Source: Candidatus Woesebacteria bacterium
GTDB taxonomy: Bacteria > Patescibacteriota > Microgenomatia > UBA1400 > MFAQ01
Length of the DNA: 64,000 nucleotides
Direction of reading: 5' to 3'
Assembly: GCA_035389185.1 (NCBI GenBank)
Contig: DAOORK010000001.1
Coordinates: forward strand, 631,415-695,414
Shown here: positions 4,425-63,500 of the stretch, one piece after another
How the letters are laid out: each line of letters starts with the position of its first letter
Numbering within the stretch: the first letter of the stretch is position 1
The notes under the pieces: model-generated
Databases searched by the model: none
Seen by the model: only the letters and a program-made list of their open reading frames with translations
Told to the model about the DNA's origin: nothing
Program-made: the position numbers and the translations under genes

Positions 4425-4427
4425 AGC

Positions 4428-5174: not shown

Positions 5175-5176
5175 AA

Positions 5177-9981: not shown

Positions 9982-10027
9982 AGGTCATTACATCTTCAAA
10001 TTTATCTTTGATTATAATTGCTTAATA

Positions 10028-10813: not shown

Positions 10814-10922
10814 ATAATGAAAAAGCCGATTACTCGGCTCGTTCACGATGCTCTTGCGAGGCATCCCCCTCCGATGAACGGATTAAGTAAATAATAGCAT
10901 TTGTTTTAGAGTTTGTGTGCTA

Positions 10923-13066: not shown

Positions 13067-13203
13067 TCTTATCTTTGGCTAAAAACTGGAATAGCTCTAA
13101 AAAATCCCAGCTCTCGATCTTTGCTTCTGCTTCGGCTAGCTTTCTTCCGAAGTGTTTAATTAATAACTGTCGATATTCAGCTACTGCCTGTAGGGGTAAG
13201 GAT

Positions 13204-13449
13204 CTAGACTCTTTCATACAAGCGTGCCTTGAGCTCCTTAATTGCCTCAACAAGGTCTTTGCTGGCTACTAATAGTGAACGATCCCAGTGTGATTGGATG
13301 GTGTTTTCAACATCTTCGGGTGAATGGTCAAAAATAAACTCAACAAGCTTGTTGTTAAGCCGATTGAGCTGTCTTAGTTTCAATCCAGCTGCCATTAGTG
13401 CAGTACTTAGATAGAAGTCTTTTGTGGTGAAATACTTATCTTTTTCCAT
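13204..13449 (-). CDS. small hypothetical protein (81 aa)
   Basis: ORF in the minus-strand island gene string. Confidence 0.35.
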   Translation of the reverse strand: MEKDKYFTTKDFYLSTALMAAGLKLRQLNRLNNKLVEFIFDHSPEDVENTIQSHWDRSLLVASKDLVEAIKELKARLYERV

Positions 13450-13513
13450 ATCTTGTGGCTATGATGCCTTGATATGGAAATCATCTCAGGGGAGTTTGGC
13501 TGGAAATTCCGAC

Positions 13514-14380
13514 TTAATCAGCAATAAGTCGGAAAATACCACTCCAGTATTTTGGGGTGGGTAGTTGGTATCTCTCAACGACGTCGTAATAATTTCGTTT
13601 TAGCTTAGCTTGAAGCTTTTCTGTCTGTTTAAGGTAAATTTCTTCTAGTTCGTCTTCTGGTAGGTTTCCATATTTTTCTTCAATGAGATTTCCGGTTGCA
13701 CGCTCAATTGCGGCAGATATTAGAGTGTTGTATTCACCACGGTTTTTATCATTATTGAGCATGATTAATGATTCTTCTACCCTGAGGAATGATTTGATTT
13801 TTGATCTATCTTGCGAGCTTATGTCATGACGTTTTCTTTTTAACACCCTGCTTATGCTCTTGTCTGGAGTTAAGTCGGATAAGAACTCTTGGGCATCGGT
13901 TAGTGCATTGAACACATCTTCTTTTGAGGTATTTATGCTTATTGGAATATATGTTCCTTGGGTTATTGGTGAAATGGCGGACGCTATGACGAAGTTTCTC
14001 TCAGCGATCAATCCGTTAGGTTTACGGTCAAACACAACGAAATCTACCAGTAGCTCGGGTGGAAGATTTAATTTAGTAGCCAATCTAATCTCGTCCTTTA
14101 GTAGTCTAGAGAGGATGAACCAGTTCATCATGGTAAAAACATGTGGGTCTAGCGGAGTGTTTTCTTTGTAGGTGGACTTCCAAGTATTGGCAAATTCATT
14201 TGCTAGGTCGAGATGGTTTTTCCCACTCCATTCGTATAGCGCTTTCTCATCAACAAATGGCCTTGTTATCCCAAGTTTCTCTCGGGCATTTATGGCTAGC
14301 TTGAAGGCAATATAGCTATTGAAAAACAACTGAACGCGAAGGGAGTAGTAATCTAACCCCTCAATTATTTTCATACTCAT
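13514..14380 (-). CDS. hypothetical protein, possibly Abi-like
   Basis: 288 aa; the N-terminal YYSLRVQLFF...Y segment loosely resembles the Abi_2 YYRLSxY motif; weak. Confidence 0.4.
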   Translation of the reverse strand: MSMKIIEGLDYYSLRVQLFFNSYIAFKLAINAREKLGITRPFVDEKALYEWSGKNHLDLANEFANTWKSTYKENTPLDPHVFTMMNWFILSRLLKDEIRLATKLNLPPELLVDFVVFDRKPNGLIAERNFVIASAISPITQGTYIPISINTSKEDVFNALTDAQEFLSDLTPDKSISRVLKRKRHDISSQDRSKIKSFLRVEESLIMLNNDKNRGEYNTLISAAIERATGNLIEEKYGNLPEDELEEIYLKQTEKLQAKLKRNYYDVVERYQLPTPKYWSGIFRLIAD

Positions 14381-14711
14381 CTGGCTGAATCTTACTCCAA
14401 GAGTAGGTGTCTAGGTGGGTTTTAGGTTGAAAATTTGTTACTTAAACACATAATCTTGTCGTTTCACCTAAATTAGATTGACTTTTAATACAGTTCTTGA
14501 TTTTTCAGCCTCAATGAAAGTCCAAAAAATACTGTAAAAAACTCTCAAAATTGTGTAGAAACACTATGCATATTAAGTATTTTGAGGCTAAAATAACAAA
14601 TAATTTTCGGAGAGTTTTGACAGTTCCAGTTTCTTGTGATGAAAGTGATTATGACGTTGAGGCTAAATATCTAGTTGGGCAGGTGTTCAGGATTAATGTC
14701 TGTGAAGGTTT

Positions 14712-14999
14712 TTATGGCCTCCAAAGTTTTTTGGCGATTAACCTTTTAAGCGCATTAAATAACCATTTGAACAGTAACACCAAGAGGAAGCATATTGCTA
14801 CAAGAATCCAGTAAATCCATCCTTGAGGATTGGGAGCAATATCAGCAATTAATCCACTGTCAGCCTCTAGAGTGAGGGCATAAAAGATGAACAAACCGAC
14901 CGTGGCGACGGGGATACAGACAGCTACTAATCCAATTCGGATTATTGTAAAAATTAGTTTAATGATTTTCCTTAGGAGTTCCTTTCTCTTTTTTGTCAT
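14712..14999 (-). CDS. small membrane protein (overlaps upstream membrane gene; possible frameshifted single gene)
   Basis: hydrophobic; 41-65 bp overlap with 14959..15447 in a different frame. Confidence 0.35.
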   Translation of the reverse strand: MTKKRKELLRKIIKLIFTIIRIGLVAVCIPVATVGLFIFYALTLEADSGLIADIAPNPQGWIYWILVAICFLLVLLFKWLFNALKRLIAKKLWRP

Positions 15000-15447
15000 T
15001 AAGTTTCTTATAGACAACACCAATTATTAGTAGCGTTATGACCATGGATAGGGCATAGATGATTGGTGATGCGATTTCATAAGATTGTATGAATACGCCT
15101 AAGATGAAAGTTACAGGAAGCTGAACGAGGAAGAAGAATGGTGCCCCAATTAAGAAGGTGGAAATTACAGCTCTTGTGTTTCTGAAAAATATTGCATCGA
15201 GGAAGCACTTTATTCCAACCAATAGGATATTTGATTCTTTCTGGCTGCTAGTATTTTCGAGTTGGTGATTTTTCCATTGGCTTATTAGGAAAATGGCAGC
15301 AGTTATGGCTATTGATACGACTGCAAGCTCTATAAGTCCAAGCAATACGTTGTTTGTTTCTTGGTAAAACATGGGGAGAAAAACAAGGAGAGTAATGGCT
15401 AGTAGCCACTTGTGTTTTTTAATGAAGGCTTTGTATTGGTCGATCAT
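14959..15447 (-). CDS. membrane protein (4 TM)
   Basis: hydrophobic helices. Confidence 0.45.
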   Translation of the reverse strand: MIDQYKAFIKKHKWLLAITLLVFLPMFYQETNNVLLGLIELAVVSIAITAAIFLISQWKNHQLENTSSQKESNILLVGIKCFLDAIFFRNTRAVISTFLIGAPFFFLVQLPVTFILGVFIQSYEIASPIIYALSMVITLLIIGVVYKKLNDKKEKGTPKENH

Positions 15448-15514
15448 ACTTTTCTCATTATAACGCTATGTTTACTGCGTTGTCGTCAAGGACGGATACT
15501 ACCACACTTATCTT

Positions 15515-15733
15515 GTGATATCCAAAGAAAAACTGAGCAAACTGATTGGGAAGCGAATTAGAGAGGAGAGGGAGAAAAGGGGGTTGTCGCAAGAAGCCTT
15601 AGCCGGTGACGCGGGTCTGTACAGGACTTATGTCGGTCACCTTGAAAATGGGAGGTATATGCCGACCATATTTACGATTTATCGTGTGGCTGAAGTGTTA
15701 AAGATCGATCCCCTGAGTTTGCTTAAGATTTAA
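15515..15733 (+). CDS. XRE-family HTH regulator, likely controller (C) protein of the downstream R-M module
   Basis: GLSQEALAGDAGLYRTYVGHLENG HTH; 72 aa; GTG start; lies just upstream of the C5-MTase gene. Confidence 0.65.
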   Translation: MISKEKLSKLIGKRIREEREKRGLSQEALAGDAGLYRTYVGHLENGRYMPTIFTIYRVAEVLKIDPLSLLKI

Positions 15734-15790
15734 ATTGTTGAGTTTGACGACCTGCTCGATTAAATCGTCATTGTTGGTTACAATGGGTGT

Positions 15791-16855
15791 ATGGCAAAGA
15801 AAATTAGGGTTGTAGACCTATTCTGTGGTATTGGTGGTCTAACCCATGGACTGATCAAGGAAGGTCTAGAGGTGGTGGCGGGAATAGACAACGATAATTC
15901 ATGCAAGTTTGGTTACGAGCATAACAATAGGGCAAAATTTATCGGTAAAGATATTCTTGAGGTTACGGCTGGTGAGGTAAGTAAGTTGTTTGGTAAAGGG
16001 GCGATCAGAGTCCTTGCGGGATGTGCTCCTTGTCAACCTTTCTCCAGATTGAATCTTAAAGAAATAACAAAAAAGCAACTTCAGCCACTTGAAAAATTTG
16101 CACAGTTGATTGAGGAGGTTAAGCCAGATATTGTTTCCATGGAAAATGTTAGTGAGTTGGCAAAAATGGACAAATATCCCATTTTTAAGACTTTCCTTGA
16201 TACCTTGGAAAGGAATGGTTACAGATATAAATATGAAGTTGTTGATGTTTCCGAATACGGCGTCCCCCAAAGCAGGAGGAGGCTTGTTTTGTTGGCTTCA
16301 AGATTTGGCGAGATTGAATTGGTGAAGCGGACACATAAAGACAACCGTGTGACTGTAAAAGACGTTATAAGAGATCTTGAGCCGATTCGGGATGGCGAAG
16401 TAAGTAGGAAAGACCCTCTCCATCGATCAAGAAAACTAAACGAGATTAATCTTAGGAGAGTAAAAGCTACTCCCCATGATGGTGGGGATTCGAGTGCGTG
16501 GAGTGAAGATCTTATTCTGAAATGTCACAGAAAAGAGTCTGGAAGTACTTATAAAAAAACTGTTTATGGTCGTATGCGATGGAATGAGCCAGCGCCTACA
16601 ATGACGACACAGTGTGTTGGGTTGGGAAATGGCCGTTTTGGTCACCCAGAGCAGGACAGGGCAATTAGCTTAAGGGAAGCGGCACGGTTTCAAACCTTTC
16701 CTGATAACTATCAGTTTTTTGATCCAAATACTCCATTTGTGACTGCTCATATAGCTAGGTTTATTGGTAATGCCGTGCCTGTGAGGCTAGGGTCTATAAT
16801 TGGGGCAAGTATAAAAATGCATATAAGTAGAAATGCCAAATCAATTCACATTTGA
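15791..16855 (+). CDS. dcm: DNA (cytosine-5)-methyltransferase
   Basis: Motif I LFCGIGG; motif IV GCAPCQPFS; motif VI MENV; motif X RFIGNAVPV. Confidence 0.9.
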   Translation: MAKKIRVVDLFCGIGGLTHGLIKEGLEVVAGIDNDNSCKFGYEHNNRAKFIGKDILEVTAGEVSKLFGKGAIRVLAGCAPCQPFSRLNLKEITKKQLQPLEKFAQLIEEVKPDIVSMENVSELAKMDKYPIFKTFLDTLERNGYRYKYEVVDVSEYGVPQSRRRLVLLASRFGEIELVKRTHKDNRVTVKDVIRDLEPIRDGEVSRKDPLHRSRKLNEINLRRVKATPHDGGDSSAWSEDLILKCHRKESGSTYKKTVYGRMRWNEPAPTMTTQCVGLGNGRFGHPEQDRAISLREAARFQTFPDNYQFFDPNTPFVTAHIARFIGNAVPVRLGSIIGASIKMHISRNAKSIHI

Positions 16856-18545
16856 GTTATCACTAAGTGTCCTAAATCATTTAGGCAGAAACCTTTATAG
16901 AAGCTTCGTCACAATATTGGGGGAGGCGATCTCAAATTCATGGGATGCAGATTCAAATAAGGTCAACATATACATTGATCGTGAACACAACAGCCTGTGT
17001 GTTAGAGATGATGGTGTGGGAATGACTGCTGATGAATTTCAGAACAAGTTTCTGAGAATTGGCTATTCAAAACGTAATTCTGAAGGTAGTAGCTCACCTG
17101 CTGGTAGACCTTATATAGGTAGAAAGGGTATCGGGAAGCTCGCTTTACTTTCATGCGCTGACAAGATTCATGTCATTAGCAAAAAAAGTGGTGGTGAATA
17201 TGTAGGAGGTGTGGTGGTTAACTCTGAGCTTGATGATGCAATCAGAGATGATTTATTGACTTCTCAATATCCACTGTCTGATATGGATATGAGCAAATTT
17301 GAGGACGTGATTGGTGGTCATGACCACGGGACAATAATATATTTTGAGAACATAAAAGATGGGGTTAAGAATAGTTTGACGTTTTTAAAGAAAGCTATTG
17401 CGTTGTATTTTCGTTTTTCGTTGATTGATCAATCGTTTAAGATTTTTTTAGGAGACGATGATGAAATTACTTACGCCGATCTCGAGGATTTATCGAGCAA
17501 AACAGAGTTTTTGTGGAAGGTAGGTGAATATGAGGATCCGTATGTAGAGAACTTAGAGGCTCGTTTTACTACAAAAGATAATGAGAAGAGGGGGATTGAA
17601 ATTGATGGAGCTTATGGTTTTGTTGCCTCTGTAAAAAAGCCGCGTGATCTAAAAATCTTGACCACTGATGAGCGGGTGGGGGTTGACTTGTTTGTAAACG
17701 GGCGTTTGAGAGAAAGAGATATTTTGAAGCACATCCCCACAGCAAGGTTGGCGGAAAACTATTTATATGGACAGATTCATCTTGACGATATGAATGACGA
17801 GCAAGATCGTTTCACAAGTAGTCGTGAAAGCGTTGTAGCGGATGACGATAAATATGAGCAATTCTTGGAAGTAATGCGAAGTAAAATATTGGAGATTGTT
17901 AACGACTGGGATAAATGGAGAATTAAGCACAGGGAAGATGGGGATCAGGAAAACGATAATATGCCTAAGGCAGAGAGAAAGTCGAGAGAGCTGTTTAATC
18001 AGATCGCTGGAGAATATGAATTGCCATCGGGAAATGCTAATGCTGGAAAAGTAGATGCATGGGTTGATTCATTGGCTGATGACGCTCAATACAACTTTCG
18101 TTCGTATGCAGAGTGCTTTGTATCCGAGAATTTGCTTCGTAAGCATATTGAAGATGGCGGTGTGGCACCTACGTCTTGTATGAACCCCGATTTGCAGGGA
18201 AATACATGTGAAGATAGATTTGATGAAGAAGCTGGTAATACCAGCTTGTGTAGTTTTTGTAAGGCTGAGAGAAGTAAACAGGGATTGCAAATTCAAAAGA
18301 ACGAAGCGGGAACGTCGATACAGATCAGAGAAGCAGAAGAGAATCCATTAATGTATATGGATTACATAGATCTAGCAAAGATAGCCGACGATGACATACT
18401 CAAAGAAGAAGATAAACCATATAAGCCATTGAGAAACTCGGTAATGCACACTTCGAGATTGACACAAGCTGCTAAGACGAAGTTGACCTCTGTTTTTGAT
18501 AATGTTGTTGCGACTGTAAAGCAGTTGGTCGGGTCTAACAGTTGA
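16833..18545 (+). CDS. GHKL (Bergerat-fold, MORC/MutL-like) ATPase, candidate restriction/defence component
   Basis: N-box EAISNSWDA; G1 DDGVGM; G2 GRKGIGKLA; Cys-rich C-terminus; the gene overlaps the dcm 3' end by 23 bp. Confidence 0.7.
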   Translation: MPNQFTFELSLSVLNHLGRNLYRSFVTILGEAISNSWDADSNKVNIYIDREHNSLCVRDDGVGMTADEFQNKFLRIGYSKRNSEGSSSPAGRPYIGRKGIGKLALLSCADKIHVISKKSGGEYVGGVVVNSELDDAIRDDLLTSQYPLSDMDMSKFEDVIGGHDHGTIIYFENIKDGVKNSLTFLKKAIALYFRFSLIDQSFKIFLGDDDEITYADLEDLSSKTEFLWKVGEYEDPYVENLEARFTTKDNEKRGIEIDGAYGFVASVKKPRDLKILTTDERVGVDLFVNGRLRERDILKHIPTARLAENYLYGQIHLDDMNDEQDRFTSSRESVVADDDKYEQFLEVMRSKILEIVNDWDKWRIKHREDGDQENDNMPKAERKSRELFNQIAGEYELPSGNANAGKVDAWVDSLADDAQYNFRSYAECFVSENLLRKHIEDGGVAPTSCMNPDLQGNTCEDRFDEEAGNTSLCSFCKAERSKQGLQIQKNEAGTSIQIREAEENPLMYMDYIDLAKIADDDILKEEDKPYKPLRNSVMHTSRLTQAAKTKLTSVFDNVVATVKQLVGSNS

Positions 18546-18741
18546 TATGACTCTAAAACGGGCTAGAAGAATCTTAGGGAAAAATGGGAAAGGGCTCACT
18601 GATGGAGAGCTTACAAAAGAGATTGAGATGGCAAGTTTTCTTGCGCAATTGGTTTTAAGTGTTGCGCGAACTAAAAAGCTGCCTTAGCCTTAATAAGCTA
18701 TAATTTCGGTTGGGAATACATATTCTTGATTGAAGAAAAGA

Positions 18742-19959
18742 ATGGCAAATAAGAATCTATCAAAAGCAAAAAACGCAAAGAACGATGAGTTTTATACTCA
18801 ATTTCTCGATATTCAAAAAGAAATTGAGGCGTATCTGGAGTATGACCCTAACACTTTCCGTAGCAAAGTGGTTTATAGCAATTGTGACGATCCGTTTGAA
18901 AGCAATTTTTTCAGATACTTTGTACTTAATTTCAATAAACTTGGGTTAAAACAGCTTATTACCACAAGTTATAAACCATCGCCGGTAGCCAATACGCAAC
19001 TACTGCTGTTTGGTGATGATATAACGCTTGCAAAATCTAAAGGACGTCCGAAAATAACGGCTAACAAATTTATTATCAACGAAGTTCGTGACCTAGATGG
19101 TGATGGTGAGTTTAATCTTAAGGATGTTGCTACCCAACTTAAATCAAATAAACACAACGAGTGGTGTCCTTTAGAGGGAGACGGTGACTTTCGTAGTGAT
19201 GAGTGTATAGAACTCCTAAAGCAATCGGACATTGTGGTAACCAATCCTCCATTTAGTCTCTTCCGAGAGTATGTTAGACAACTTGTGGACTACGACAAGA
19301 AATTTGTTGTTATTGGCAATATGAACGCAATTACTTATAAGGAAATTTTCCCACTAATTAAAACAAACAAATTGTGGCTGGGAGCAACCGGAAATGGTAG
19401 TGATATGGTTTTTGCAGTGCCAAATGGTACTGAAATAGCGGAGTCTGATAGGCAGAAGGCGGCCAGACTGGGGTATGTTGGGAATTATACGAGACTTGGC
19501 AATTCTTGCTGGTTCACAAACCTTGATCATGGGAGACGTCATAAACCGCTGCCATTAATGAAGGAAGCTGATGTAATAAAATTCAGCACAAAGAAGCCGT
19601 TTGAAAAATATGACAACTACGATGCAATTGAAGTTTCAATGGTTAAAAATATCCCCAGTGATTATGGTGGTGTTATGGGTGTGCCTATTAGTTTTCTGGA
19701 TAAATATAATCCTGATCAATTTGTGATTTTAGGAGCGACACAGAGAGGCTGTCACGACGAGGTTCCTGATACGAAAAAATACGATGATTATTGGGAAGTT
19801 AGACAAAACGGCGAAAGAACAGGATCATCTGGAGGAAAAACGAATGAAAACGCAAATTTGGTGGGTAACGATGGTAAGAAGAACTATTTTATAAATAATG
19901 AGGGTCGTATAATTCAGTCAGCCTATCAAAGAATCTTTATAAGGCGCAAAAATAAATAA
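18742..19959 (+). CDS. EcoRI-methylase-like adenine (NPPF) DNA methyltransferase
   Basis: N-terminal AKNDEFYTQ; catalytic motif [10 protein letters not shown]; ATG at 18742 chosen over the TTG at 18730. Confidence 0.65.
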
Positions 19960-19960
19960 T

Positions 19961-21130
19961 ATGCATACAACATTAAGGACTACTATTTCTGTAAAAGATA
20001 TATGTGATGGTTTTGTATACAACGAATTGGAAGGTAAAGGACTGTTCGGTTTATCTGGCAATCTGACTATCCAACCCGAATATCAACGAAATTATATTTA
20101 CGCTTCAGATGGTGGAAAAAGAGAGATAGCGGTCATTGATTCTATACTTAGAGATTATCCTATTGGCTTAATTTATTTTAATAAACTTTCCGACGATAAG
20201 TTAGAGGTTTTAGATGGTCAACAGCGTATCACTAGTATTGGACGTTTTGTCACAGATAAATTTGCAATTAAAGACGAGAATGGAATGGAACAGTATTTCA
20301 GCGGCTTGGCAAGTGATAAGAAAACCAAGATATTAGAGACAAAACTGCTGATCTATGAATGTGAAGGAGCAGAAAGTGAGATAAAAGAATGGTTCAAAAC
20401 AATCAACATTGCCGGTGTTCCGCTTAATGATCAAGAATTATTGAACGCGGTTTATTCTGGGCGTTTTGTAACTATGGCTAAAGAGGAGTTTAGTAATAGT
20501 CAAAATGCTAACATCCATAAATGGAGTGCTTACATAAAGGGGAGTGTTAACAGACAAGAGTTTTTGGAGCGAGCTCTTGAATGGGTGAGTAGGGGAAAGA
20601 TTGGTGATTATATGAGTCTTCATCGTAATGATGGTGACATTGATGAGCTAAAAACCTACTTTAATACTGTAATTGACTGGGTATCGAGTGTCTTTGTAGA
20701 TGTCGAGAGTGAAATGAGTGGATTAGAGTGGGGAAGAATGTACGAGCAATATCGTGAAAATACCTATAACCCCATCAAAATATCAGAAGATGTACATAGA
20801 CTTTACGGAGACCCTTATGTAAAAAATCGTAAAGGAATTTTTGAATATATACTTGGTCGTTCTAAAAACGCGAGATTGCTGGATGTCAGGGTTTTTGATG
20901 AAGTAACTAAGAAGTCGGTTTATACAAGACAGACTGATTTGGCAAGATCTAAGGGTGAATCGAACTGTCCCCTTTGTGCAATTGGTCATGACGCTGCTAA
21001 GTCTAAAGTTTGGGAGTTTGGAGAGATGGACGCTGACCATGTAGCAGCGTGGAGCAAGGGCGGGGCAACTAACCCCAGTAACTGCCAGATGCTCTGCAAA
21101 ACGCACAATCGAGCAAAAGGAAATCGATAA
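19961..21130 (+). CDS. DUF262 (ParB/Srx-like, DGQQR) N-domain fused to an HNH nuclease; candidate restriction endonuclease (GmrSD-like)
   Basis: [13 protein letters not shown]; C-terminal CPLC...[12 protein letters not shown]...[13 protein letters not shown]/Zn-finger; starts 1 nt after the MTase stop. Confidence 0.7.
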
Positions 21131-31410: not shown

Positions 31411-32181
31411 TCAGGTTAAAAGAACTACCCAAACGACGATGGCGAGAATAAGGCGGTAGATGGCAAAGATGGAGAAACTGTGTTTACTGACGAAGGAAGT
31501 AAAAGCCTTAACGGCCAACATGGCTGAAAGAAAAGAAAAGAGAGAACCGATGAGTAAAATGAGATATTCGTGAGACGAGAAGAGGATGCCCGTTTTTAGA
31601 AGATCATAACCACTGGCTGCAGCCATTGTAGGAATAGCCAAAAGAAAAGAAAATTCGACTGCTTCAGTTCGAGACAAACCATTTGCAAGACCACCTACGA
31701 TGGAAGCTGCCGATCTGGAGACGCCGGGGATCATGGAGAGAGATTGAAAAAGACCGATGGAGAAAGAATTGCCGATTTTTAACTGACTGATTTTTTTGGA
31801 TCCGGATTTTAGTTTGGGTAAACGATCAACAATAAGTAGGGCGATGCCTCCCAAAAAGAGTGCGGCACAGGTAATACTAACGTTATCTAGGAGAAAACCC
31901 TTAACAATTTTATATAAAGTGGCACCGAGAATACCTGTTGGAATAAAGGCAAAAATAATCGGTTTCCATAAGGAACGAGAAAGAAAAATCTTTTTCCAGT
32001 AGAGGACTACAACAGCAAGAATGGCAGAAAGTTGGATGATAATGTTAAAACTTTTGGTGAATTCGGAAGGCGCAATGTTTAAGAATTTTTCCGCAAGGAT
32101 AAGGTGGCCGGTACTGGAGATGGGGAGGAATTCAGTAAGTCCTTCGATAATAGCAAGAATGATAGTTTGAAAATAAGTCAT
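31411..32181 (-). CDS. uppP: undecaprenyl-diphosphatase
   Basis: N-terminal IIEGLTEFLPISSTGHL BacA motif; polytopic. Confidence 0.85.
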   Translation of the reverse strand: MTYFQTIILAIIEGLTEFLPISSTGHLILAEKFLNIAPSEFTKSFNIIIQLSAILAVVVLYWKKIFLSRSLWKPIIFAFIPTGILGATLYKIVKGFLLDNVSITCAALFLGGIALLIVDRLPKLKSGSKKISQLKIGNSFSIGLFQSLSMIPGVSRSAASIVGGLANGLSRTEAVEFSFLLAIPTMAAASGYDLLKTGILFSSHEYLILLIGSLFSFLSAMLAVKAFTSFVSKHSFSIFAIYRLILAIVVWVVLLT

Positions 32182-54963: not shown

Positions 54964-55938
54964 ATGGGGAAGAAGATTTTTGTAACACATATCTTTTTGG
55001 ATAGGTATTTGAAAGAGTTAAAAGAAAAGTATGATGTGGTGGTATGGCCAAAAAAAGACATCAGCCGTGAAGATCTGTTAAGACAGGTAAAGGGAGTCTC
55101 GGGAATAGTGTCTTTATTAACGGAGAAAATCGATGGAGAAGTAATGGATGCGTCAGGAACGGAACTTGAGGTTGTAAGCAATTATGGCGTAGGTTTTGAC
55201 AATATTGATTTACAGGAGGCGACAAAAAGAGGAATCTGTGTGACAAATACGCCTGGAGTCTTGACCGAGTCAGTAGCCGAAGAAGCAATTGCTTTGATGC
55301 TGGCCGTTTTGAGAAGAATTGTTGAGGGTGATAGATTTGTGAGAACAGGTAAATATAAAGGTTGGGAACCAGATTTATTGTTGGGAACTGGGCTCAAAGA
55401 CAAAGAACTGGGAATTGTGGGTTTGGGCAGAATAGGCAGATGGACAGCGAGAATGGCCAGCGCCTTGGGTATGAAGATAATTTATTACAATCGTCATCGT
55501 GATGAAGAGTTTGAAGAGGAGTATGGTGTGACCTACCACACACTTGATCAATTACTGGAACAAGCAGATGTGGTTAGTTTGTCAGTACCTTTGACAGAGG
55601 AGACAAGACATATGATTGGAGAGAGGGAATTAAAAATGATGAAACCGACAGCAGTGCTGATAAATACGGCAAGGGGAGCAGTGGTGCATCAGGAGGCTTT
55701 GATAGAAGCTTTAAAAGAAAAGTGGATTGCCGGTGCGGGGCTGGATGTTTTTGAAGATGAATCGAGTATTCCAGAGTCATTAAGATCATTACCTAATACC
55801 GTACTGACACCACATATTGCTTCATCAACTGTTGAAGCAAGACTAGCGATGGCAAGGATTGTAGTAGAAAATATGAATGCAGGTTTGGAAGGCAGACAAC
55901 CAACTTGCTTGGTAAATACTGATGTCTGGAAAAAATAA
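54964..55938 (+). CDS. D-isomer-specific 2-hydroxyacid dehydrogenase (glyoxylate/hydroxypyruvate reductase-like)
   Basis: GIVGLGRIGRWTA NAD fold; catalytic R/E/H region; start at the internal ATG. Confidence 0.75.
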   Translation: MGKKIFVTHIFLDRYLKELKEKYDVVVWPKKDISREDLLRQVKGVSGIVSLLTEKIDGEVMDASGTELEVVSNYGVGFDNIDLQEATKRGICVTNTPGVLTESVAEEAIALMLAVLRRIVEGDRFVRTGKYKGWEPDLLLGTGLKDKELGIVGLGRIGRWTARMASALGMKIIYYNRHRDEEFEEEYGVTYHTLDQLLEQADVVSLSVPLTEETRHMIGERELKMMKPTAVLINTARGAVVHQEALIEALKEKWIAGAGLDVFEDESSIPESLRSLPNTVLTPHIASSTVEARLAMARIVVENMNAGLEGRQPTCLVNTDVWKK

Positions 55939-56254
55939 TATGAAAAATATTGAAGACGAAGAGAAAGACATTGAGATTCCCAGTGATGAGGATGAAAATG
56001 TTGGCGAGGATGGGTTAATAAAGAAAAAACATAAGAGGAAAAAGACAAAAGAGGAAAAGATAGCTGAGAGAAAGACTATTTTTTGGACTTTGTTGATTAT
56101 TTTGGTGGCAACCTTAATTTTTTGGTTGTTACCGATAATAAAGGGAACTAACAAGAAAAGTAGTGTTCCGGAATCACAGGCAAAAACTGAAGAGAAAAAA
56201 AATAGCCCAAGCGAAAAGAGCGAGCGTAAAAATTACGTGGAGATTACTCTTTAA
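55922..56254 (+). CDS. small Lys/Glu-rich membrane protein
   Basis: One TM flanked by charged low-complexity sequence. Confidence 0.35.
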   Translation: MSGKNNMKNIEDEEKDIEIPSDEDENVGEDGLIKKKHKRKKTKEEKIAERKTIFWTLLIILVATLIFWLLPIIKGTNKKSSVPESQAKTEEKKNSPSEKSERKNYVEITL

Positions 56255-58608
56255 AGGACTTGGGGTGTTGGGGATACGGTGATGGGGGTTGGGTTTAATA
56301 TCTCCTTAATTTTTTCCGGGTCGCAGTGCGTTTTTGGTTCAGTACCCTTGACAAAGTATTCATATTTTGTTGGACAGCCTTCACAGGGCAGTGTTCCAGT
56401 GAGAGTGCAAATGCCTATTTTGATAAGTTCTTGCGGAGTAGCTGATGAGGATGATGTGGGGTTTTCGATGAGAATAGTGTTGACTATTTTTGCCCAGATT
56501 GAAGAAGCCCCGGTAATACCTGACGCAATATGAGACATGGGTGAGTTATCGTTGTTGCCAACCCAGGTGGCAACCAAGAAATCGGTGGTGTAGCCAAAGG
56601 TCCAGTTGTCTCGAAGATCATTGCTAGTACCAGTTTTGACGGCGACTTTGGCCTTTTTGATATTAAGAATGGAGTTATAACCAAATGCCGGAGCTCGAGC
56701 AGTGTTGTCGCTTAAGATATCGGTAATAAGATAGGCAGTGGTTGGAGAGATGATTTGCTGTGGTGAACAGGTGTCTTCCTCTCTGGCAATAGCAGGTGTA
56801 TTAACTGAGGCGGTATCTAACTGCTGATCGCAACCAGAAACATATAATGATTTACCGTTGGATTTTTTTACATCAAGTATGGCTGTGAGAGGAGTAGATG
56901 TTCCTGAGTTTGCGAAAGTTGAGTAAACTGCGGCCATATCAGTCATGCGAACTTCCAAACTACCAAGCGCCATGGAAAGTCCAAAACGACTGGTGTCTGT
57001 CCAAGTGGTAATACCCATTTTGGTGGCTAGATTGGCCATGTTTTGAACACCGTTTTTTGAAAGCAGAATAACCGAGGGAATATTGTAGGAACTTCCAAGA
57101 GCTTGTCTTAAGGTGACAAAGCCATGGAATTTGCCGTCGTAATTTTTAGGTGTCCAAGGTTCTTGCCCCGGAAGATTAAAGGAAAGAGGTTTATCCTCAA
57201 CAACGCTGCCCGGTCCGTAACCATTTTCAAAGGCGAGAGAATAGTTTACAGGTTTTATTGAACTACCAGGTTGACGAAGGGCAAGGGTAAGATTTACCTG
57301 TCCACCCTCATTGAGATTGAAATAATCTTTTGAACCAACCATGGCGAGAATTTCCCCTGTTTGGGGTGAGGTAACGAGGGCGGCACCGTTGGTGACGTGA
57401 TATGACTGAAGAGAGTTAATTTCGTCAGTGACTATTCCTTGAACTTCTTCTTGAAGGTCAAGATCGAGAGTGGTGGTGACAATTAGACCTCCGTGATTAA
57501 CAACACCTTCACCAAGTTGTTTGGTAAGTATGTTTTTAACGTACATTACAAAGTGAGGAGCTTTTATTTCGGTTTTGGCAGAATTAAAAACTAGCTTTTG
57601 ATTGATGGCTTGTTGATACTCTTCCTCAGAAATAAAACGAGCCTTAATCATTTGATCCAGTACAAATTTTTGACGTGAAGAAGCCAGTTCTGGTTGGTTT
57701 CCAAAGGGAGAGTATTTGCTTGGTGCTTGGGGGAGACCAGCTAAAAAAGCGGCTTGAGAAAGGTCGAGGTCTTTGGCGTCAATATTAAAGTACTGTCTGG
57801 AAGCCTCTTGGATACCGTATGCTGTACCCCCAAAGCCAACTTGATTGAGATACATTTCAAATATTTGATCCTTGGTGTAAGTGAATTCAACTTCAACGGC
57901 AAGAATAAGCTCTTTTATTTTTCTGATGATTGTTTTTTCGTTGGTAAGAAGGGTGTTTTTTACGAGTTGCTGAGTGATGGTAGATCCACCCTCGTTTTTA
58001 TCATTGAAAATATTTTTATAGATGGCTCGAAGAACTCCGGTAATAGAAAATCCTTTGTGCCGATAGAAATCTCGATCTTCTGCGGCTAAGAAAGCATTTT
58101 TTACCTGTTGAGGAAGAGAATCCAAAGCAATAAGGGTGCGGTTTTCGTCTTCATAAACTTTGTAAAGAAGTTTTCCATTTCGATCTAAAATTTGAGTGGT
58201 CAATTTTGAGGGATATTGGTGGAGAGTTTTGGGACTGGGAAGATCATAGAAGAACTCAAGATAGAGAAAAGAAACAATCGCGATAACCCCAAGGGAGAGA
58301 AAGATGAACTGTCGAAGATACGAATGAGACAAGAAATCTTTTCTTTGACGTTGGGGATAGAGCCTTCGAAGATGAGATAAATGAAATGACGATTTTTGGA
58401 TGCGAATTTGAGGAAGACGTATCTTTGGGAGTTTAATTCGGGGCAAGTTGATTTTGGGGATACGAGGTAGAGGACGAGAAAATATTTTGCTGAAGAAAAA
58501 TGCAATATAACTGAAACCGAGAATTAGCCAGAGAAAAAATTTATAGACAGGAAGTCCAAGATAATATAAAAAATTCTTTGATTGATTAAAGTCTTTCTTC
58601 TTTGCCAT
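56251..58608 (-). CDS. class A penicillin-binding protein (PBP1A: transglycosylase plus transpeptidase), copy 1
   Basis: GT51 motifs EDRDFYRHKG, GGSTITQQLVKN, RKIKE; transpeptidase SSIKP, SYN, KTGTS; N-terminal basic LPRIxK repeats. Confidence 0.9.
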   Translation of the reverse strand: MAKKKDFNQSKNFLYYLGLPVYKFFLWLILGFSYIAFFFSKIFSRPLPRIPKINLPRIKLPKIRLPQIRIQKSSFHLSHLRRLYPQRQRKDFLSHSYLRQFIFLSLGVIAIVSFLYLEFFYDLPSPKTLHQYPSKLTTQILDRNGKLLYKVYEDENRTLIALDSLPQQVKNAFLAAEDRDFYRHKGFSITGVLRAIYKNIFNDKNEGGSTITQQLVKNTLLTNEKTIIRKIKELILAVEVEFTYTKDQIFEMYLNQVGFGGTAYGIQEASRQYFNIDAKDLDLSQAAFLAGLPQAPSKYSPFGNQPELASSRQKFVLDQMIKARFISEEEYQQAINQKLVFNSAKTEIKAPHFVMYVKNILTKQLGEGVVNHGGLIVTTTLDLDLQEEVQGIVTDEINSLQSYHVTNGAALVTSPQTGEILAMVGSKDYFNLNEGGQVNLTLALRQPGSSIKPVNYSLAFENGYGPGSVVEDKPLSFNLPGQEPWTPKNYDGKFHGFVTLRQALGSSYNIPSVILLSKNGVQNMANLATKMGITTWTDTSRFGLSMALGSLEVRMTDMAAVYSTFANSGTSTPLTAILDVKKSNGKSLYVSGCDQQLDTASVNTPAIAREEDTCSPQQIISPTTAYLITDILSDNTARAPAFGYNSILNIKKAKVAVKTGTSNDLRDNWTFGYTTDFLVATWVGNNDNSPMSHIASGITGASSIWAKIVNTILIENPTSSSSATPQELIKIGICTLTGTLPCEGCPTKYEYFVKGTEPKTHCDPEKIKEILNPTPITVSPTPQVL

Positions 58609-58679
58609 GATTGGGCGATAGGGTTCAAAGGGCAGGTCTGTACAACTGAGACTATTTTAAATGGACAGCGGGGAAAAGA

Positions 58680-59900
58680 CTAGGGGTTGATTAGAGTTTT
58701 AATTGGTGTCCAAAGATCCTGAGATTCACCTTCATACCCCAGGGCCCAGATAGCGATGCCCCCAAGATTTGCTGACTTGACCAGTTTAATTTTTTGTTCG
58801 AGTGATTGAGAATTTTCAAAGTGGACTTGATAAGTGTCACCATCTTTTTCATAAACAAGATAAGGACTAAGGGTAGTGTCGGACCATTTTGCTGAAATGG
58901 AAGAAATATCTGCGTTTTGGAAGAGAGTAAGAATGCGTTGATATGAAGCTAGCCGACCTGTTCCAGAATAAGTGTTTGCAAGAAAATCAGATGAGGCGGT
59001 TTGCCATTCATAGCCATAGAAAGGAATACCAAGAATTATTTTTTCTGAAGGAATGATTTTACTTAGAGCAGAGATATGGGAGATGATGTCTTCTTCAAGA
59101 CAATTTTGGGTGATGATGGTTGAACATTTTCCAGAGATAGGAGCAATCGGACCAGCTTGAGTTGACGTTGTGCGGTAGTAGTCGTATGACATGACGATAA
59201 ATTTATCGACAAAAGGTTCAAGGGATTTGAGATCCCAGAGTCGAGGCTTTTCGGCGACGCTACCAAAGACATCAATATCAATTTGGCAGTAAGACTTAAC
59301 TGTTGTACAAGCAGAACGGAGATCTTTAATAAATTGAACATAGTTGGCTCTGATTTCAAAGTTTCCGGCACTAACGTATTCAAAGTCAATGTTGATATCG
59401 TCAAATTTATAGGAATTATAGACAGACATTATGGAGTTTATAGCTGTTGATCTTGTGTCTGAGTTTTGAAGAATACCTTCAATAGTATCCGGATCCATAG
59501 CGGTGATGGTGATGATGGTTTTTTGACCTAATAGACGAGATTGATAGAGAAGTTTGCTGGTATCTTTGGATTTAAGTTTGTTCCAACCCGGTTCTGTTTC
59601 GACTGAGTTAATTTTTTTGTTGATTGAGCCATCAGCATTTAAATCAATGGCAAAATAAGCAAAATGAGTGAGATTTTGGATATTAAGAGTGTCAGAATAT
59701 TTAAGATTCCAGTAGGGGAAAAAACCGTAGATAATTTTTTCAGAACGAACGGCAGGTGAGTTGCCGATAAGGGTTTCGATGAGTGAAACAGGACTGACAA
59801 GGGGAAGGTTGTTTTGCCAAATGATAAAGGCAGTAACAGAAGAAGCTAAAATAGCTAATCCGAGAAAAAATAAACCAAGTTTACGGGACATTTGGCGCAC
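58680..59900 (-). CDS. GH18-family glycoside hydrolase (chitinase-like), secreted/membrane-anchored
   Basis: N-terminal TM; catalytic DDINIDFEY (DxxDxDxE); IIYGFFPYW start of the barrel. Confidence 0.7.
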   Translation of the reverse strand: MRQMSRKLGLFFLGLAILASSVTAFIIWQNNLPLVSPVSLIETLIGNSPAVRSEKIIYGFFPYWNLKYSDTLNIQNLTHFAYFAIDLNADGSINKKINSVETEPGWNKLKSKDTSKLLYQSRLLGQKTIITITAMDPDTIEGILQNSDTRSTAINSIMSVYNSYKFDDINIDFEYVSAGNFEIRANYVQFIKDLRSACTTVKSYCQIDIDVFGSVAEKPRLWDLKSLEPFVDKFIVMSYDYYRTTSTQAGPIAPISGKCSTIITQNCLEEDIISHISALSKIIPSEKIILGIPFYGYEWQTASSDFLANTYSGTGRLASYQRILTLFQNADISSISAKWSDTTLSPYLVYEKDGDTYQVHFENSQSLEQKIKLVKSANLGGIAIWALGYEGESQDLWTPIKTLINP

Positions 59901-62253
59901 TGATTGTATTTAGATAGTTCTGGGGAGTAATGTATTTTGATTGGAATTGGCCATAATCTATGACTGTTTGCGGCCAAGAAATATTTCCCTTTTCGTCAAC
60001 TGGGTAGACACAGTCAAGACAAAAGTTTTGAGTAAAAGGATCAGATATAACTGTGTGTTCTTCGAAATCGCGATCAACTGTTTCATCGCCGGTAAGAATG
60101 GGGTATTTATCGGAACGACGTACCCAGATCTGCTGTCTTTGCGAAACAGCATTTTGGCTCAGGGGCAGTATCCCTTCAATGAAATATTCTGAGTGAGATT
60201 CACACTGGTTTTCTTGTTGGGCAAGAAGACCAGTTAGATTGCAGACTTGATAATTAGTTACCTTTTCCGGTTTGACTAATGGCTGGTTCTTGGTCCCCTT
60301 AAGAAGACGTTTCATAATCGTGTTCCAGATAGGTGAGGCGCCGGTAACACCGGAAGCGACATAACTCATGGAGGAGTTGTCGTTGTTGCCAACCCAGGTA
60401 ACTGCAAGGTATTCTTGGGTGTAGCCAATTGTCCAGTTATCTTTTAAGTCGTTTGTGGTACCGGTTTTAACAGAGACAGTGTGATTTGGGATTACCAGCT
60501 GACTATTGGTACCAAAAGCGGCACTACGAGCTCCGTTGTCGGAAAGAATATCGGAGATGATAAAAGTGACTTCTTCGGGTAGGGTGACACGCGGGTCAGT
60601 GTTTTTGATTTCAGTTTGAGGTGTGGATTGATTTGTCCAAAAATCGGTCCAGTTTTCAGGCATAACCGAGACCACATCAGCAATTTGCTGAGTATCTATT
60701 TCTTCGAGAACTTTGCCGGTATAGTCTTCAACTTTGAGGACGGAAATCAAGGGAACAGTTACTCCTGAGTTGGCAAAAGTGCCAAACGTCTTAGCCATGT
60801 CGAGCATAGTTACTTCACCGCCCCCCAAAGTGAGAGAGAGACCATAGTTGGCTGGATCTGTCCAGGTGGAGATACCCATTGCTGAGGCTGTAGCGATGAA
60901 AGAATCAAGACCATTAAGGGCGAGCTGTTTGACAGCAGGAATATTAAGTGAGTTGGCCAAAGCGAGGCGCATAGAAACCGGACCGCGGAAGCTATTGTCA
61001 TAATTTTTGGGACAGTATTGTTTTTGGCCTGCAACATTAAAACAGGTTGGGACATCGAGAAAGACTAAACTGGTTGGCCAGCCTTTAAGAAGGCCAACGG
61101 CATAGTTCACAGGCTTTATGGAACTTCCAGGTTGGCGGAAGGCTGTGGTAACGTTTACTTGACCATCAATAGTGTCGTCGAAATAGTCTTTGGAGCCAAT
61201 AAGAGCGATGATCTCTCCGGTATTTGGTTTGGTGACAACGGCAGCGCCATTGCTAATTTTGAGTCGAGAGATCTTTTTCATTTCGGCGGCGAGAGAGGCT
61301 TCAAAGTATTGCTGAAGTTCAAGATCTAGAGAAGTGGTGACACGGAGCCCACCGATATTTACTTTGTCTTCACCATATTTTTGAACAAGTTCGTCTCGAA
61401 CCATGAGGGCGAAGTGTGGGGCGTTAATAATGATGTTTTTAGTAGTAAAGTTTAGTTTTTCAGCCTTGGCAGTGTCTGCTTGTTCTTGAGTGATATATCC
61501 GTCTTCGACCATACGGCGCAAAACTTCATGTTGACGATTGATGGCTAGTTCGGGGTGAGCACCGAATGGGGAGTAGGTTGTTGGTGATTGTGGTAATCCA
61601 ACTAGTAGGGCGGACTCGGCGAGATTTAGATCTTTGGCACTTTTACCAAAGTATGTTTGAGACGCGGCTTCGATACCGTAGGCAGTTCCACCATAGGGGG
61701 TGTAGTTGAGATATAACTCCAAGATCTGATCTTTGGAGTAGGTTAGCTCGGTAACAAGGGCGAGAACTGCCTCTTTGATTTTGCGGGTAATAGTGCGATT
61801 GGTGTCCGAAAGGAGCGAATTTTTTACAAGCTGTTGAGTAATTGTCGAACCGCCAGCGAGTCTTTTGCCTTTCGTAAGAGTATTAAAGGCGGCTCGGATA
61901 ATGCCGGTGATGTCGACACCATGATGGTGATAAAAGTTTTTGTCTTCTATGGCGATGGTTCCTTGTTTGACAAAGTTAGGAATATCGGCAAAGACAATGG
62001 GAGTACGTTTGTAATCAGAGTAAACTTCGTAGAGGAGCTTTCCGTTGCGATCTAGAATCTGGGTACTGATAGGAGCTGGTGTTCTGGTGAGTTTGGAAGG
62101 ATTGGGGACTCCTTTGAAAAGGAAAATAGAGGTAACAAAGATAACAATAAAAGAGGCAACAATGATGGAGATGGTGCGAGAACGTTTGGTTCGAGTACAT
62201 TTACGATAACTTTTTTCGATGGATCGTAGAAGTTGTTTCCTCGTTAAAGTCAT
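59881..62253 (-). CDS. class A penicillin-binding protein (PBP1A), copy 2 (paralog)
   Basis: Same GT51 and transpeptidase motifs as copy 1; shares the 20-nt stretch tcgttgttgccaacccaggt with copy 1. Confidence 0.9.
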   Translation of the reverse strand: MTLTRKQLLRSIEKSYRKCTRTKRSRTISIIVASFIVIFVTSIFLFKGVPNPSKLTRTPAPISTQILDRNGKLLYEVYSDYKRTPIVFADIPNFVKQGTIAIEDKNFYHHHGVDITGIIRAAFNTLTKGKRLAGGSTITQQLVKNSLLSDTNRTITRKIKEAVLALVTELTYSKDQILELYLNYTPYGGTAYGIEAASQTYFGKSAKDLNLAESALLVGLPQSPTTYSPFGAHPELAINRQHEVLRRMVEDGYITQEQADTAKAEKLNFTTKNIIINAPHFALMVRDELVQKYGEDKVNIGGLRVTTSLDLELQQYFEASLAAEMKKISRLKISNGAAVVTKPNTGEIIALIGSKDYFDDTIDGQVNVTTAFRQPGSSIKPVNYAVGLLKGWPTSLVFLDVPTCFNVAGQKQYCPKNYDNSFRGPVSMRLALANSLNIPAVKQLALNGLDSFIATASAMGISTWTDPANYGLSLTLGGGEVTMLDMAKTFGTFANSGVTVPLISVLKVEDYTGKVLEEIDTQQIADVVSVMPENWTDFWTNQSTPQTEIKNTDPRVTLPEEVTFIISDILSDNGARSAAFGTNSQLVIPNHTVSVKTGTTNDLKDNWTIGYTQEYLAVTWVGNNDNSSMSYVASGVTGASPIWNTIMKRLLKGTKNQPLVKPEKVTNYQVCNLTGLLAQQENQCESHSEYFIEGILPLSQNAVSQRQQIWVRRSDKYPILTGDETVDRDFEEHTVISDPFTQNFCLDCVYPVDEKGNISWPQTVIDYGQFQSKYITPQNYLNTISAPNVP

Positions 62254-62903: not shown

Positions 62904-63500
62904 TCATTTGGTTGGGGTGATTGAACTGAGGTATTTGGAGGTAGTTTCCTTGAGCCATTTATCAAGTTCGTCAGAGAGGGGATTTACAACTGTGAAAGTG
63001 TCTTGACCGTCGTGCATGGTGATCTTCGTGAAAGAAATCTTAATAACAGGGGTAAATGTGAAGTTACTATCTCGGCAAAACAGGATAGCTATTATGACGG
63101 GGCAGACCTCCTTTTGATCTGAAAGCTTGATACTGGAATAAAAGTGATTTCCAGCACAATGGATATCGTCAGGGGTGTTACCGTCACCAGTCACCTTTCC
63201 TTCTTCTGTCCACGAATTGATAGTCCTTAAGTCAGGAACAACACTCGCCAATTCTTGCCAACCAATTTCGTAATCGATACCACTTTTGTCTTTGGTTGTT
63301 AGTACTTTTGTTGCGGTAGTATGATCCCCAAGGTCGTGAAAGAAACGAGCAATAGTTTCGTAGACGCCACTATCATGCATGTAAACTATGGCCGATCCTA
63401 TGAGGGCCTTTGTCGTATCATTTTTTATCTTGGAGTCTTTTAGCTCATTATCAAGCTGACACTGCATTCCAGAAAGTGCATTTTTTAGCCAATCGGCCAT
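62904..63500 (-). CDS. hypothetical protein (198 aa)
   Basis: ORF with a terminator downstream; no motif recognised. Confidence 0.4.
   Translation of the reverse strand: MADWLKNALSGMQCQLDNELKDSKIKNDTTKALIGSAIVYMHDSGVYETIARFFHDLGDHTTATKVLTTKDKSGIDYEIGWQELASVVPDLRTINSWTEEGKVTGDGNTPDDIHCAGNHFYSSIKLSDQKEVCPVIIAILFCRDSNFTFTPVIKISFTKITMHDGQDTFTVVNPLSDELDKWLKETTSKYLSSITPTK

Follow-up and report, generated by a model that had tools for sequence, protein, structure and literature searches.

The window analysed here is a stretch of 64,000 nucleotides (nt) from Candidatus Woesebacteria bacterium (contig DAOORK010000001.1 of assembly GCA_035389185.1). Three consecutive open reading frames (ORFs) occupy positions 56251-62253 of its minus strand and encode, in order, a class A penicillin-binding protein (PBP), a protein of family 18 of the glycoside hydrolases (GH18) and a second class A PBP; the two PBPs are referred to below as PBP-up and PBP-down. 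The sequence data favour, on balance, the view that the GH18 protein is a membrane-anchored hydrolase of the organism's own peptidoglycan glycan strands and that it acts, probably as an N-acetylglucosaminidase, alongside the two synthases. Its catalytic residues are intact and it has a membrane anchor, the order of the genes and the overlap between the first two are conserved in related genomes, and the duplication that produced the two PBPs is ancient.

Anchor, fold and active site of the GH18 protein

The GH18 protein matched the Glyco_hydro_18 profile (PF00704) with a score of 132.6 bits, against a gathering cutoff of 29.6, and the match covered profile positions 4-316 of 317. This was the only Pfam domain found in the protein; no LysM domain, carbohydrate-binding module or PF01832 domain was detected. 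A hydrophobic stretch of 21 residues is situated near the N-terminus, and an AlphaFold2 model of the protein places a helix over residues 2-31; a linker of approximately 25 residues joins this transmembrane helix to the barrel. The architecture in that model (predicted local distance difference test score 83.7, predicted template-modelling score 0.83, with the loop at residues 243-269 not confident) is that of a signal-anchor helix followed by a single (beta/alpha)8 TIM-barrel with an insertion domain. The enzyme thus has a signal anchor in place of a cleavable secretion signal, faces outward and is kept close to the membrane. A juxtamembrane motif, 'pL.sp', was kept across 81 GH18 orthologs, which ranged from 31 to 100% in identity.

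The first-pass annotation of this DNA had given DDINIDFEY as the catalytic motif of the protein and DxDxE as the residues on which catalysis depends. The sequence DDINIDFE is indeed present, with D172 and E174 intact, but the motif reads D-x-x-N-x-D-x-E. In an alignment to chitinases, FDDINIDFEY lies opposite (Y)NLDGIDLDWEY, so that D172 and E174 stand opposite the D-x-E of ChiW, and the first Asp of the textbook motif, equivalent to D140 of ChiB, is represented by Asn170. Such a replacement of Asp by Asn at the ChiB D140 position lowers activity in chitinases. Further differences from the chitinase signatures were observed, in that SxGG is replaced by TxTA and DxDWE by NxDFE. Read to the letter, DxDxE is therefore absent, which in the terms of the first-pass annotation would have spoken against the idea of a shared function; in substance it does not, and YdhD and the structure 4WIW are also without that Asp.

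Conservation of the site was examined at two depths. In 22 close GH18 homologs, D167, N170, D172, F173 and E174 are invariant. In the 81 orthologs, D172, E174, M237, Y239 and D240 are conserved at 100%, as are Y295, Y297, W299, W385 and W64, and N170 is found in 78 of the 81 (Gln in two, Val in one). The GH18 residues of this conserved set carry out substrate-assisted catalysis in the family. Because the active-site residues are invariant in the orthologs, an active enzyme is favoured.

Relatives of the GH18 protein

The GH18 family to which the protein belongs comprises 814 representatives at 50% identity (E values of 1e-30 or lower), most of them 380-430 amino acids (aa) in length. The longer members were inspected for domain fusions and contained GH18 domains only, with no LysM domain, carbohydrate-binding module or PBP domain; one of them, P0238 (915 aa, from the representative search), carries two GH18 domains in tandem. 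Members of the family bear the label 'spore germination protein YaaH' in JGI.

A search of the PDB with the family profile gave Bacillus subtilis YdhD (3cz8) as the best match, at 90 bits; ChiW scored 85 bits and YaaH 71.5 bits, and 4WIW and YaaH/SleL also score well. The position equivalent to N170 is occupied by Thr in YdhD (GGVTIDFE) and by Val in 4WIW (DGVVIDFE). Foldseek comparison of the GH18 model with the PDB yielded 311 matches at E values of 0.001 or lower, and the 50 listed were all of the GH18 fold, with a probability of 1.00. SleL (4s3k, 4s3j) was among the top four, and 5jh8 and 4wiw were also among the top matches.

SleL has been shown by experiment to be a peptidoglycan N-acetylglucosaminidase (Lambert & Popham 2008, as cited in PMC10653849). 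The citing paper describes the characterised enzyme with the words 'Cleaves small fragments' and gives small cortical fragments as its preferred substrate.

The two class A PBPs

Both PBPs contain a Transgly domain (PF00912; E values 1e-63 and 4e-62) and a Transpeptidase domain (PF00905). They are 46% identical over 671 aa, and their genes are 54.6% identical overall at the nucleotide level. It had been claimed that the two proteins share all of the GT51 and transpeptidase motifs, and every one of these (EDxxF, GGSTITQQ, RKxxE, S-S-I-K, SxN and KTGT) could be read in both; in the transpeptidase domains they take the forms SSIK, SLN or SYN, and KTGT. Among orthologs, the GT51 residues E103, E161, G134 and Q140 are kept in all full-length sequences of both paralogs, and the K of SxxK, the S and N of SxN, and KTG are conserved at 100% in 73 upstream and 52 downstream sequences. 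For the nucleophilic Ser of SxxK the reading covers the two window PBPs only, the ortholog table having scored the neighbouring Ser.

With respect to subfamily, PBP-down scored 510.4 bits and PBP-up 500.1 bits against the NCBIfam PBP_1a_fam model (TIGR02074), the cutoff of which is 508.75. The PBP_1c model gave scores of 458 and 474 for the two proteins, with a cutoff of 494. The closest solved relatives of PBP-up are the PBP1a structures 4oon, 5u2g and 3udf.

Each paralog has a region of its own. The C-terminal tail of PBP-up (residues ~700-790; 59881-60330, minus strand), which has no Pfam match, carries a D738-P739...C745-x-D747-C748 motif (SDPFTQNFCLDC). These five residues (D738, P739, C745, D747 and C748) are at least 90% conserved in 73 PBP-up orthologs and are absent from PBP-down, and the Cys tail might represent an interaction or disulfide module. 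PBP-down has an N-terminal extension (residues 1-120; window positions 58400-58608, minus strand) in which two hydrophobic segments surround a very basic, Pro-rich repeat, LPRIPKINLPRIKLPKIRLPQIRI. This extension could be aligned only within Collierbacteria-like relatives.

A stretch of 20 identical nt in the two PBP genes had been noted at about 56551 and 60381. The identity is real, with the limits given in Table 1. The sequence occurs exactly twice, where shuffled sequences predict no occurrence by chance, and no other run of at least 12 nt is identical in the two genes. Codon identity at identical PBP residues is 0.41, versus 0.39 expected from codon usage. Since the stretch encodes the conserved TWVGNND and codon identity is close to expectation, it is attributed to conservation of a motif in an old duplication. 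Gene conversion and a recent duplication were considered as sources of the identity and were ruled out by its location in TWVGNND, by its being a lone match and by the codon identity values.

Conservation of the arrangement

A scan of one genome per species returned at least 570 GH18 relatives. The best 80 loci, with GH18 identities of 31-76%, were kept and compared by tblastn with the three window proteins. All of the meaningful labels among the 80 loci are of Microgenomates or Patescibacteria (Collierbacteria, Woesebacteria, Pacebacteria, 'Microgenomatus' and CP011212), and CP011212 has been placed in the order UBA1400 (PMC7143001).

It is apparent that the arrangement is not peculiar to the genome under study. 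A class A PBP ends less than 1.5 kb upstream of the GH18 gene, on the same strand, in 74 of the 80 loci. In two others (L025 and L077) a PBP is located 2.2-2.5 kb upstream, with genes inserted between, and in a further two (L043 and L064) less than 1 kb of contig is available on that side; PBP-up is truly missing only in L059 and L063. The distance from the stop codon of PBP-up to the first in-frame GH18 start is about -38 to +45 nt in most of 76 loci. Downstream of GH18, a second PBP was found in 54 of the 73 loci having more than 1.5 kb of sequence there, and two further loci have one at 1.9 and 4.7 kb from GH18. Both PBPs are present in 49 loci. The adjacency of PBP-up and GH18 is the best-conserved link of the neighbourhood and is kept even at 31-38% GH18 identity; genes downstream of the operon are conserved in at most 27 loci.

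Without exception among the loci, the upstream PBP resembles PBP-up more than PBP-down, and the reverse holds for the downstream PBP. A neighbour-joining tree of 125 PBPs, midpoint-rooted and without bootstrap and thus indicative only, separated a clade of 73 upstream proteins and one downstream protein (from L077) from a clade of 51 downstream proteins. Mean identities are 0.60 and 0.55 within the two groups, versus 0.47 between them. As the paralogs split into upstream and downstream clades, these results indicate that the duplication predates the divergence of the lineages and that the paralogs have fixed places in the operon.

The first-pass annotation had proposed that a GH18 enzyme placed between two synthases reflects coordinated synthesis and remodelling of the wall. 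This proposal is partly supported: a functional tie between this enzyme and the synthases is favoured by the conserved gene order, the overlap and the invariant Asp-x-Glu, and the wording of the catalytic motif as DxDxE had to be given up.

In L063 the divergent neighbour of GH18 is MurJ, the lipid II flippase (5902-7572, minus strand; PF03023, E value 2e-71), and PBP-down still follows; the GH18 motif of this locus is FDGLQLDFE, with Gln at the N170 position. In L025 an insertion of approximately 2.3 kb (5567-7860) separates PBP-up from GH18. It contains two genes, the product of one being a multi-pass membrane protein of 226 aa and that of the other, which lies on the opposite strand, a 450-aa protein with a Tat signal.

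Gene calls and operon structure

Features of the locus are collected in Table 1. The first-pass annotation had described three ORFs in the same orientation, and all three were found on the minus strand, with their domains confirmed by Pfam. Its GH18 gene is retained with regard to the membrane anchor and the active-site motif and is revised with regard to the start codon. Translated from a GTG, the ORF spans 58680-59900 and encodes 406 aa; the public call begins at the ATG at 59891 and yields 403 aa. The 403-aa product is 100% identical to P0001, and a record look-up with the 406-aa product gave no match.

The start codon of the GH18 gene overlaps the last codons and the stop codon of PBP-up, and this arrangement suggests that translation of the two is coupled. 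PBP-down starts 71 nt past the GH18 stop codon. On one side, the operon is flanked by opposite-strand genes for the halves of a transketolase, for a DeoC aldolase and a PfkB kinase, and for a 2-hydroxyacid dehydrogenase, as well as by a small unknown ORF. On the other side, also on the opposite strand, lies the gene for a CPBP/Rce1-like membrane protein. As their neighbours on both sides are transcribed in the opposite direction, the three genes form a self-contained transcription unit. Scans of the operon for consensus promoters and terminators gave counts not above those of shuffled sequences, and Rfam and tRNA scans of the window gave no match.

Table 1. Positions of the operon genes, their notable segments and the divergent neighbour in the 64,000-nt window
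Feature	Position	Strand	Basis
PBP-up, class A penicillin-binding protein, 790 aa, operon gene 1	59881..62253	-	Pfam PF00912 and PF00905
GH18 protein, 403 aa, operon gene 2	58680..59891	-	Pfam PF00704, public gene call
PBP-down, class A penicillin-binding protein, 785 aa, operon gene 3	56251..58608	-	Pfam PF00912 and PF00905
Overlap of PBP-up stop and GH18 start, 11 nt, ATGTCCCGTAA	59881..59891	-	Sequence
GH18 N-terminal transmembrane anchor LGLFFLGLAILASSVTAFIIW, residues 8-28 of the 406-aa ORF, after basic R/K	59817..59879	-	Sequence, AlphaFold2
GH18 active-site motif DDINIDFE (D167-x-x-N170-x-D172-F-E174)	59379..59402	-	Translation, alignment
20-nt copy in PBP-down, encodes T-W-V-G-N-N-D	56549..56568	-	Exact match TCGTTGTTGCCAACCCAGGT
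20-nt copy in PBP-up, encodes T-W-V-G-N-N-D	60380..60399	-	Exact match TCGTTGTTGCCAACCCAGGT
CPBP/Rce1-like (CAAX-protease-like) polytopic membrane protein, 199 aa	62270..62869	+	Pfam PF02517, public gene call

The CPBP-like neighbour

The CPBP-like protein scored 38.2 bits with PF02517, the cutoff of which is 22.4. Its gene and PBP-up are divergent, with 16 nt between their start codons, and each promoter must therefore lie inside the other gene. A CPBP homolog was found within 2.4 kb upstream of PBP-up in approximately 60 of the 80 loci, and in approximately 20 it is the immediate divergent neighbour.

The protease motifs of the CPBP family (EExxxR, FxxxH and HxxxN) are degenerate in this protein. 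The window sequence has EEMTFS instead of EExxxR, with Ser for Arg, and Arg in place of both motif His residues. One Glu alone is invariant across 26 orthologs, and more distant orthologs retain one or both His. Sequence and profile searches of the PDB, in which a link to SpdC or Rce1 was sought, gave no significant match. The CPBP-like protein is a candidate scaffold partner of the operon enzymes.

Proposed mechanism and alternative explanations

The three genes would constitute one operon for the building of peptidoglycan outside the membrane. Its two PBPs, as old and non-redundant paralogs, would polymerise lipid II by means of their GT51 domains and cross-link the product by means of their transpeptidase domains, and the catalytic barrel of the GH18 protein would be held near the outer face of the membrane by the N-terminal helix. 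Hydrolysis would proceed by the substrate-assisted mechanism, with E174 as the acid, D172, Y239 and D240 positioning the N-acetyl group, and W385 forming the -1 subsite. We infer the substrate, the bond that is cut and a cooperation with the PBPs: GlcNAc-containing strands of peptidoglycan made by the cell itself would be cleaved, and the enzyme would most likely be an N-acetylglucosaminidase, as SleL/YaaH is. Beside the synthases, its action would shorten nascent strands, set them free or make openings in the existing wall where new material can be inserted. Its role would be analogous to that of the membrane-bound SagB-SpdC or MltG/MpgA.

A more specific proposal, drawn by analogy and put forward tentatively as one that is rather less probable than the general one, is that the GH18 protein and the degenerate CPBP-like protein may form a complex that cuts the nascent lipid-linked strands made by both PBPs. 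Such a complex would be a convergent, GH18-based analogue of SagB-SpdC.

Several observations weigh against a dedicated role in the synthesis of the cell's own wall. The matches to YdhD and SleL are barely ahead of those to chitinases (YdhD at 90 versus ChiW at 85 bits, and Foldseek E values all ~1e-21), and the substrate of SleL is spore cortex fragments, which should not exist in this organism. N170 stands where chitinases have the Asp equivalent to ChiB D140. Approximately one-quarter of the loci are without a downstream PBP, so that bracketing of the GH18 gene is not obligatory. In addition, clustering of ORFs showed that opposite-strand genes for ribonucleotide reductase (RNR), NrdR and a cytidylate-kinase-like protein are present in 57, 56 and 42 of the 80 loci, respectively. 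The region is a deep syntenic block, and shared ancestry together with small, stable genomes explains part of the conservation.

The last of these points underlies an explanation in which the genes are merely neighbours inherited from an ancestor with a small, stable genome, the GH18 protein having an unrelated role. The conservation of the RNR, NrdR and cytidylate-kinase-like genes nearby (42-57 of 80 loci) is in its favour, but those genes are on the other strand, whereas PBP-up and GH18 share a strand and overlap or nearly do so. That the PBP-up/GH18 link is the best kept even at 31-38% GH18 identity, and that MurJ or PBP-down adjoins GH18 where PBP-up is missing, also make inheritance without functional coupling unlikely, to a slightly greater degree than a role in salvage or turnover, which is itself regarded as unlikely. 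In the salvage explanation a surface GH18 enzyme degrades exogenous or shed peptidoglycan fragments, or chito-oligosaccharides, and so provides the cell with GlcNAc for synthesis of its wall; the gene would then share an operon with the PBPs on account of a common 'wall economy' and not of physical cooperation. It draws support from the intact catalytic residues, from the very limited biosynthesis of bacteria of the candidate phyla radiation (CPR), a related genome having five glycoside hydrolases only (PMC7143001), and from the preference of characterised SleL for small cortical fragments, as given in PMC10653849. Against it, neither the operon nor its flanks include a conserved sugar transporter, kinase or deacetylase, and the suggested coupling of its translation to that of an extracytoplasmic synthase is more in keeping with a stoichiometric partner than with a nutrient enzyme.

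The fold and sequence of the GH18 protein are nearly as close to real chitinases such as ChiW and the nematode and plant class V enzymes, and in surveys the GH18 genes of Patescibacteria are routinely counted under 'chitin' (PMC9868632). Both points favour a true chitinase or else a hydrolase directed at the wall or glycans of a host or prey, and the first-pass annotation had named action on a host cell wall as an alternative. Because the protein is membrane-anchored with a linker of approximately 25 residues and is encoded in an operon with the cell's own synthases, a host-wall role is quite unlikely; with that anchor and linker, the enzyme would sit beneath the cell's own wall. Equally, the protein has no chitin-binding or other carbohydrate-binding domain, its TxTA and NxDFE replace the SxGG and DxDWE signatures, and its gene adjoins a PBP in 74 of 80 genomes. 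It is very improbable that the GH18 fold serves instead as a non-catalytic regulator or lectin, which would bind strands and activate or position the PBPs, much as an Lpo-type activator or a chitinase-like lectin does. Many catalytically dead GH18 lectins are known, Ym1 and RobpsCRA being among the fold matches, and the Asp equivalent to D140 is Asn in the window protein. Nevertheless, E174, D172, Y239 and D240 are invariant in the 81 orthologs, and pseudo-enzymes of this fold typically lose the Glu.

Other features of the window

Two small ORFs flank the module, at 62904-63500 (minus strand, 198 aa) and 55922-56254 (plus strand, 110 aa). Neither has a Pfam match, and both are called as genes in public records. 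A gene for a BacA/UppP undecaprenyl-diphosphate phosphatase (31411-32181, minus strand; PF02673, E value 1e-68) is also present in the window; it is a wall-precursor gene that is not linked to the operon.

The GC skew of the plus strand is extreme, at +0.2 to +0.47, from approximately 15 kb to the end of the window (15000-64000). It holds across the minus-strand PBP operon, where the coding strands have values of -0.21 to -0.24. Disparity of G and C between strands over the whole chromosome has been published for the order UBA1400, including Collierbacteria, Beckwithbacteria and Ch65 (PMC7143001), and the skew of the window fits this lineage.

Positions 2871-21130 of the window represent a mobile/defence island. 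Two of its genes, at 2871-4424 and 10923-12614, encode large serine recombinases; the others encode three methylases (an N6-methylase with a TaqI_C domain, a C5 DNA methylase and one of EcoRI type), an HATPase_c_3 protein and a GmrSD_N plus HNH nuclease. The GC skew of the first ~15 kb of the window is near zero, unlike that of the remainder, which suggests recently acquired DNA that does not yet have the strand bias of the host.

Previous reports and significance

Literature searches on GH18/YaaH, PBPs and CPR, Patescibacteria or Microgenomates found no description of an operon with a GH18 gene between two class A PBP genes, or of its CPBP neighbour. The gene families are singly well known and are already labelled by automatic annotation; the operon is described in no paper found. 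The five glycoside hydrolases of the related UBA1400 genome include one 'GH18 family peptidoglycan hydrolase', which was deemed intracellular for want of a signal peptide (PMC7143001). The anchor observed in the window protein argues against that location.

If this large GH18 family is an accessory of wall synthesis, inferences of 'chitin degradation' would be wrong for a whole class of bacteria. It would also represent a third fold among the membrane-bound glycan cutters that finish peptidoglycan synthesis, after the GH73 enzyme SagB and the YceG-like MltG/MpgA. As the two PBPs indicate, a pair of non-redundant class A synthases is kept even in genomes of very small size; the two appear to have been distinct since before the lineages split. 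Were the complex of the GH18 and CPBP-like proteins to exist, it would be hard-wired in a synthase operon across Microgenomates, and its hydrolase would be the first of the GH18 family to serve a housekeeping function in the synthesis of the vegetative wall. The genes amount to a compact, conserved four-gene module from uncultured organisms that could be reconstituted in vitro.

Comparison with known systems

The nearest enzymatic parallels are SleL/YaaH and YdhD of Bacillus (4s3j, 4s3k and 3cz8). Like the window GH18 protein, they have a barrel with an insertion domain and an 'IDFE'-type site, and the Asp preceding the D-x-E is not conserved in them. Their substrate is the glycan of peptidoglycan, and they are the best or near-best profile and fold matches of the window protein, at only ~17-21% identity. 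In contrast to the Bacillus enzymes, which have LysM domains, are sporulation-specific and act on cortex fragments, the window protein has no LysM domain, carries a membrane anchor and is encoded between two PBPs. Its host is labelled Microgenomates, as opposed to the Bacillus spore formers; sporulation genes were not looked for in this host. The GH18 chitinases, such as Serratia ChiB and Paenibacillus ChiW, have in common with it PF00704, the fold, the D-x-E, the MxYD and the Trp of the -1 subsite. They differ in having SxGG and DxxDxDWE where the window protein has TxTA and DxxNxDFE, and the latter is without chitin-binding modules, is anchored and belongs to a peptidoglycan-synthesis operon.

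Functional parallels are provided by membrane-bound hydrolases of other families. In Staphylococcus aureus SagB-SpdC, a CAAX-protease-like protein with dispensable protease residues acts as the scaffold of a single-pass membrane GH73 glucosaminidase, and the complex cuts nascent lipid-linked strands, thereby setting strand length and releasing the strands from the membrane (bioRxiv 10.1101/2020.05.21.109470). According to a prediction made by the authors of that study, envelope enzymes have other CAAX homologs of bacteria as their scaffolds (bioRxiv 10.1101/2020.05.21.109470). The likeness to the present system lies in a single-pass anchored hydrolase and a CAAX-protease-like partner, the protease residues being dispensable in SpdC and degenerate here, and the job proposed for the pair here, the cutting of nascent glycan strands next to the synthases, is that of SagB-SpdC. 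SagB belongs to GH73 and the window enzyme to GH18, so that the hydrolases are not homologous; the likeness is functional, and no PDB sequence match ties the CPBP-like protein to SpdC. To our knowledge, sagB and spdC of S. aureus are not in an operon with PBPs.

MltG, MpgA and MpgB are likewise membrane-bound cutters of nascent strands (bioRxiv 10.1101/2021.03.06.434200). These tethered enzymes work together with the synthases, and the point at which they cut nascent peptidoglycan lies a set distance away from the lipid anchor. Their fold differs from that of GH18, being that of a YceG-like lytic transglycosylase or muramidase, and both the chemistry and the bond cleaved are different.

For the synthases, the closest comparison is with PBP1A and PBP1B of Escherichia coli, which are also two bifunctional GT51-transpeptidase enzymes and long-lived paralogs with paralog-specific accessory regions. 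Here, the two are encoded in one operon with a hydrolase gene between them, and no UB2H or ODD domain and no Lpo partner was detected. The paralog-specific parts of the window proteins are the Cys-containing C-terminal tail of PBP-up and the basic N-terminal extension of PBP-down.

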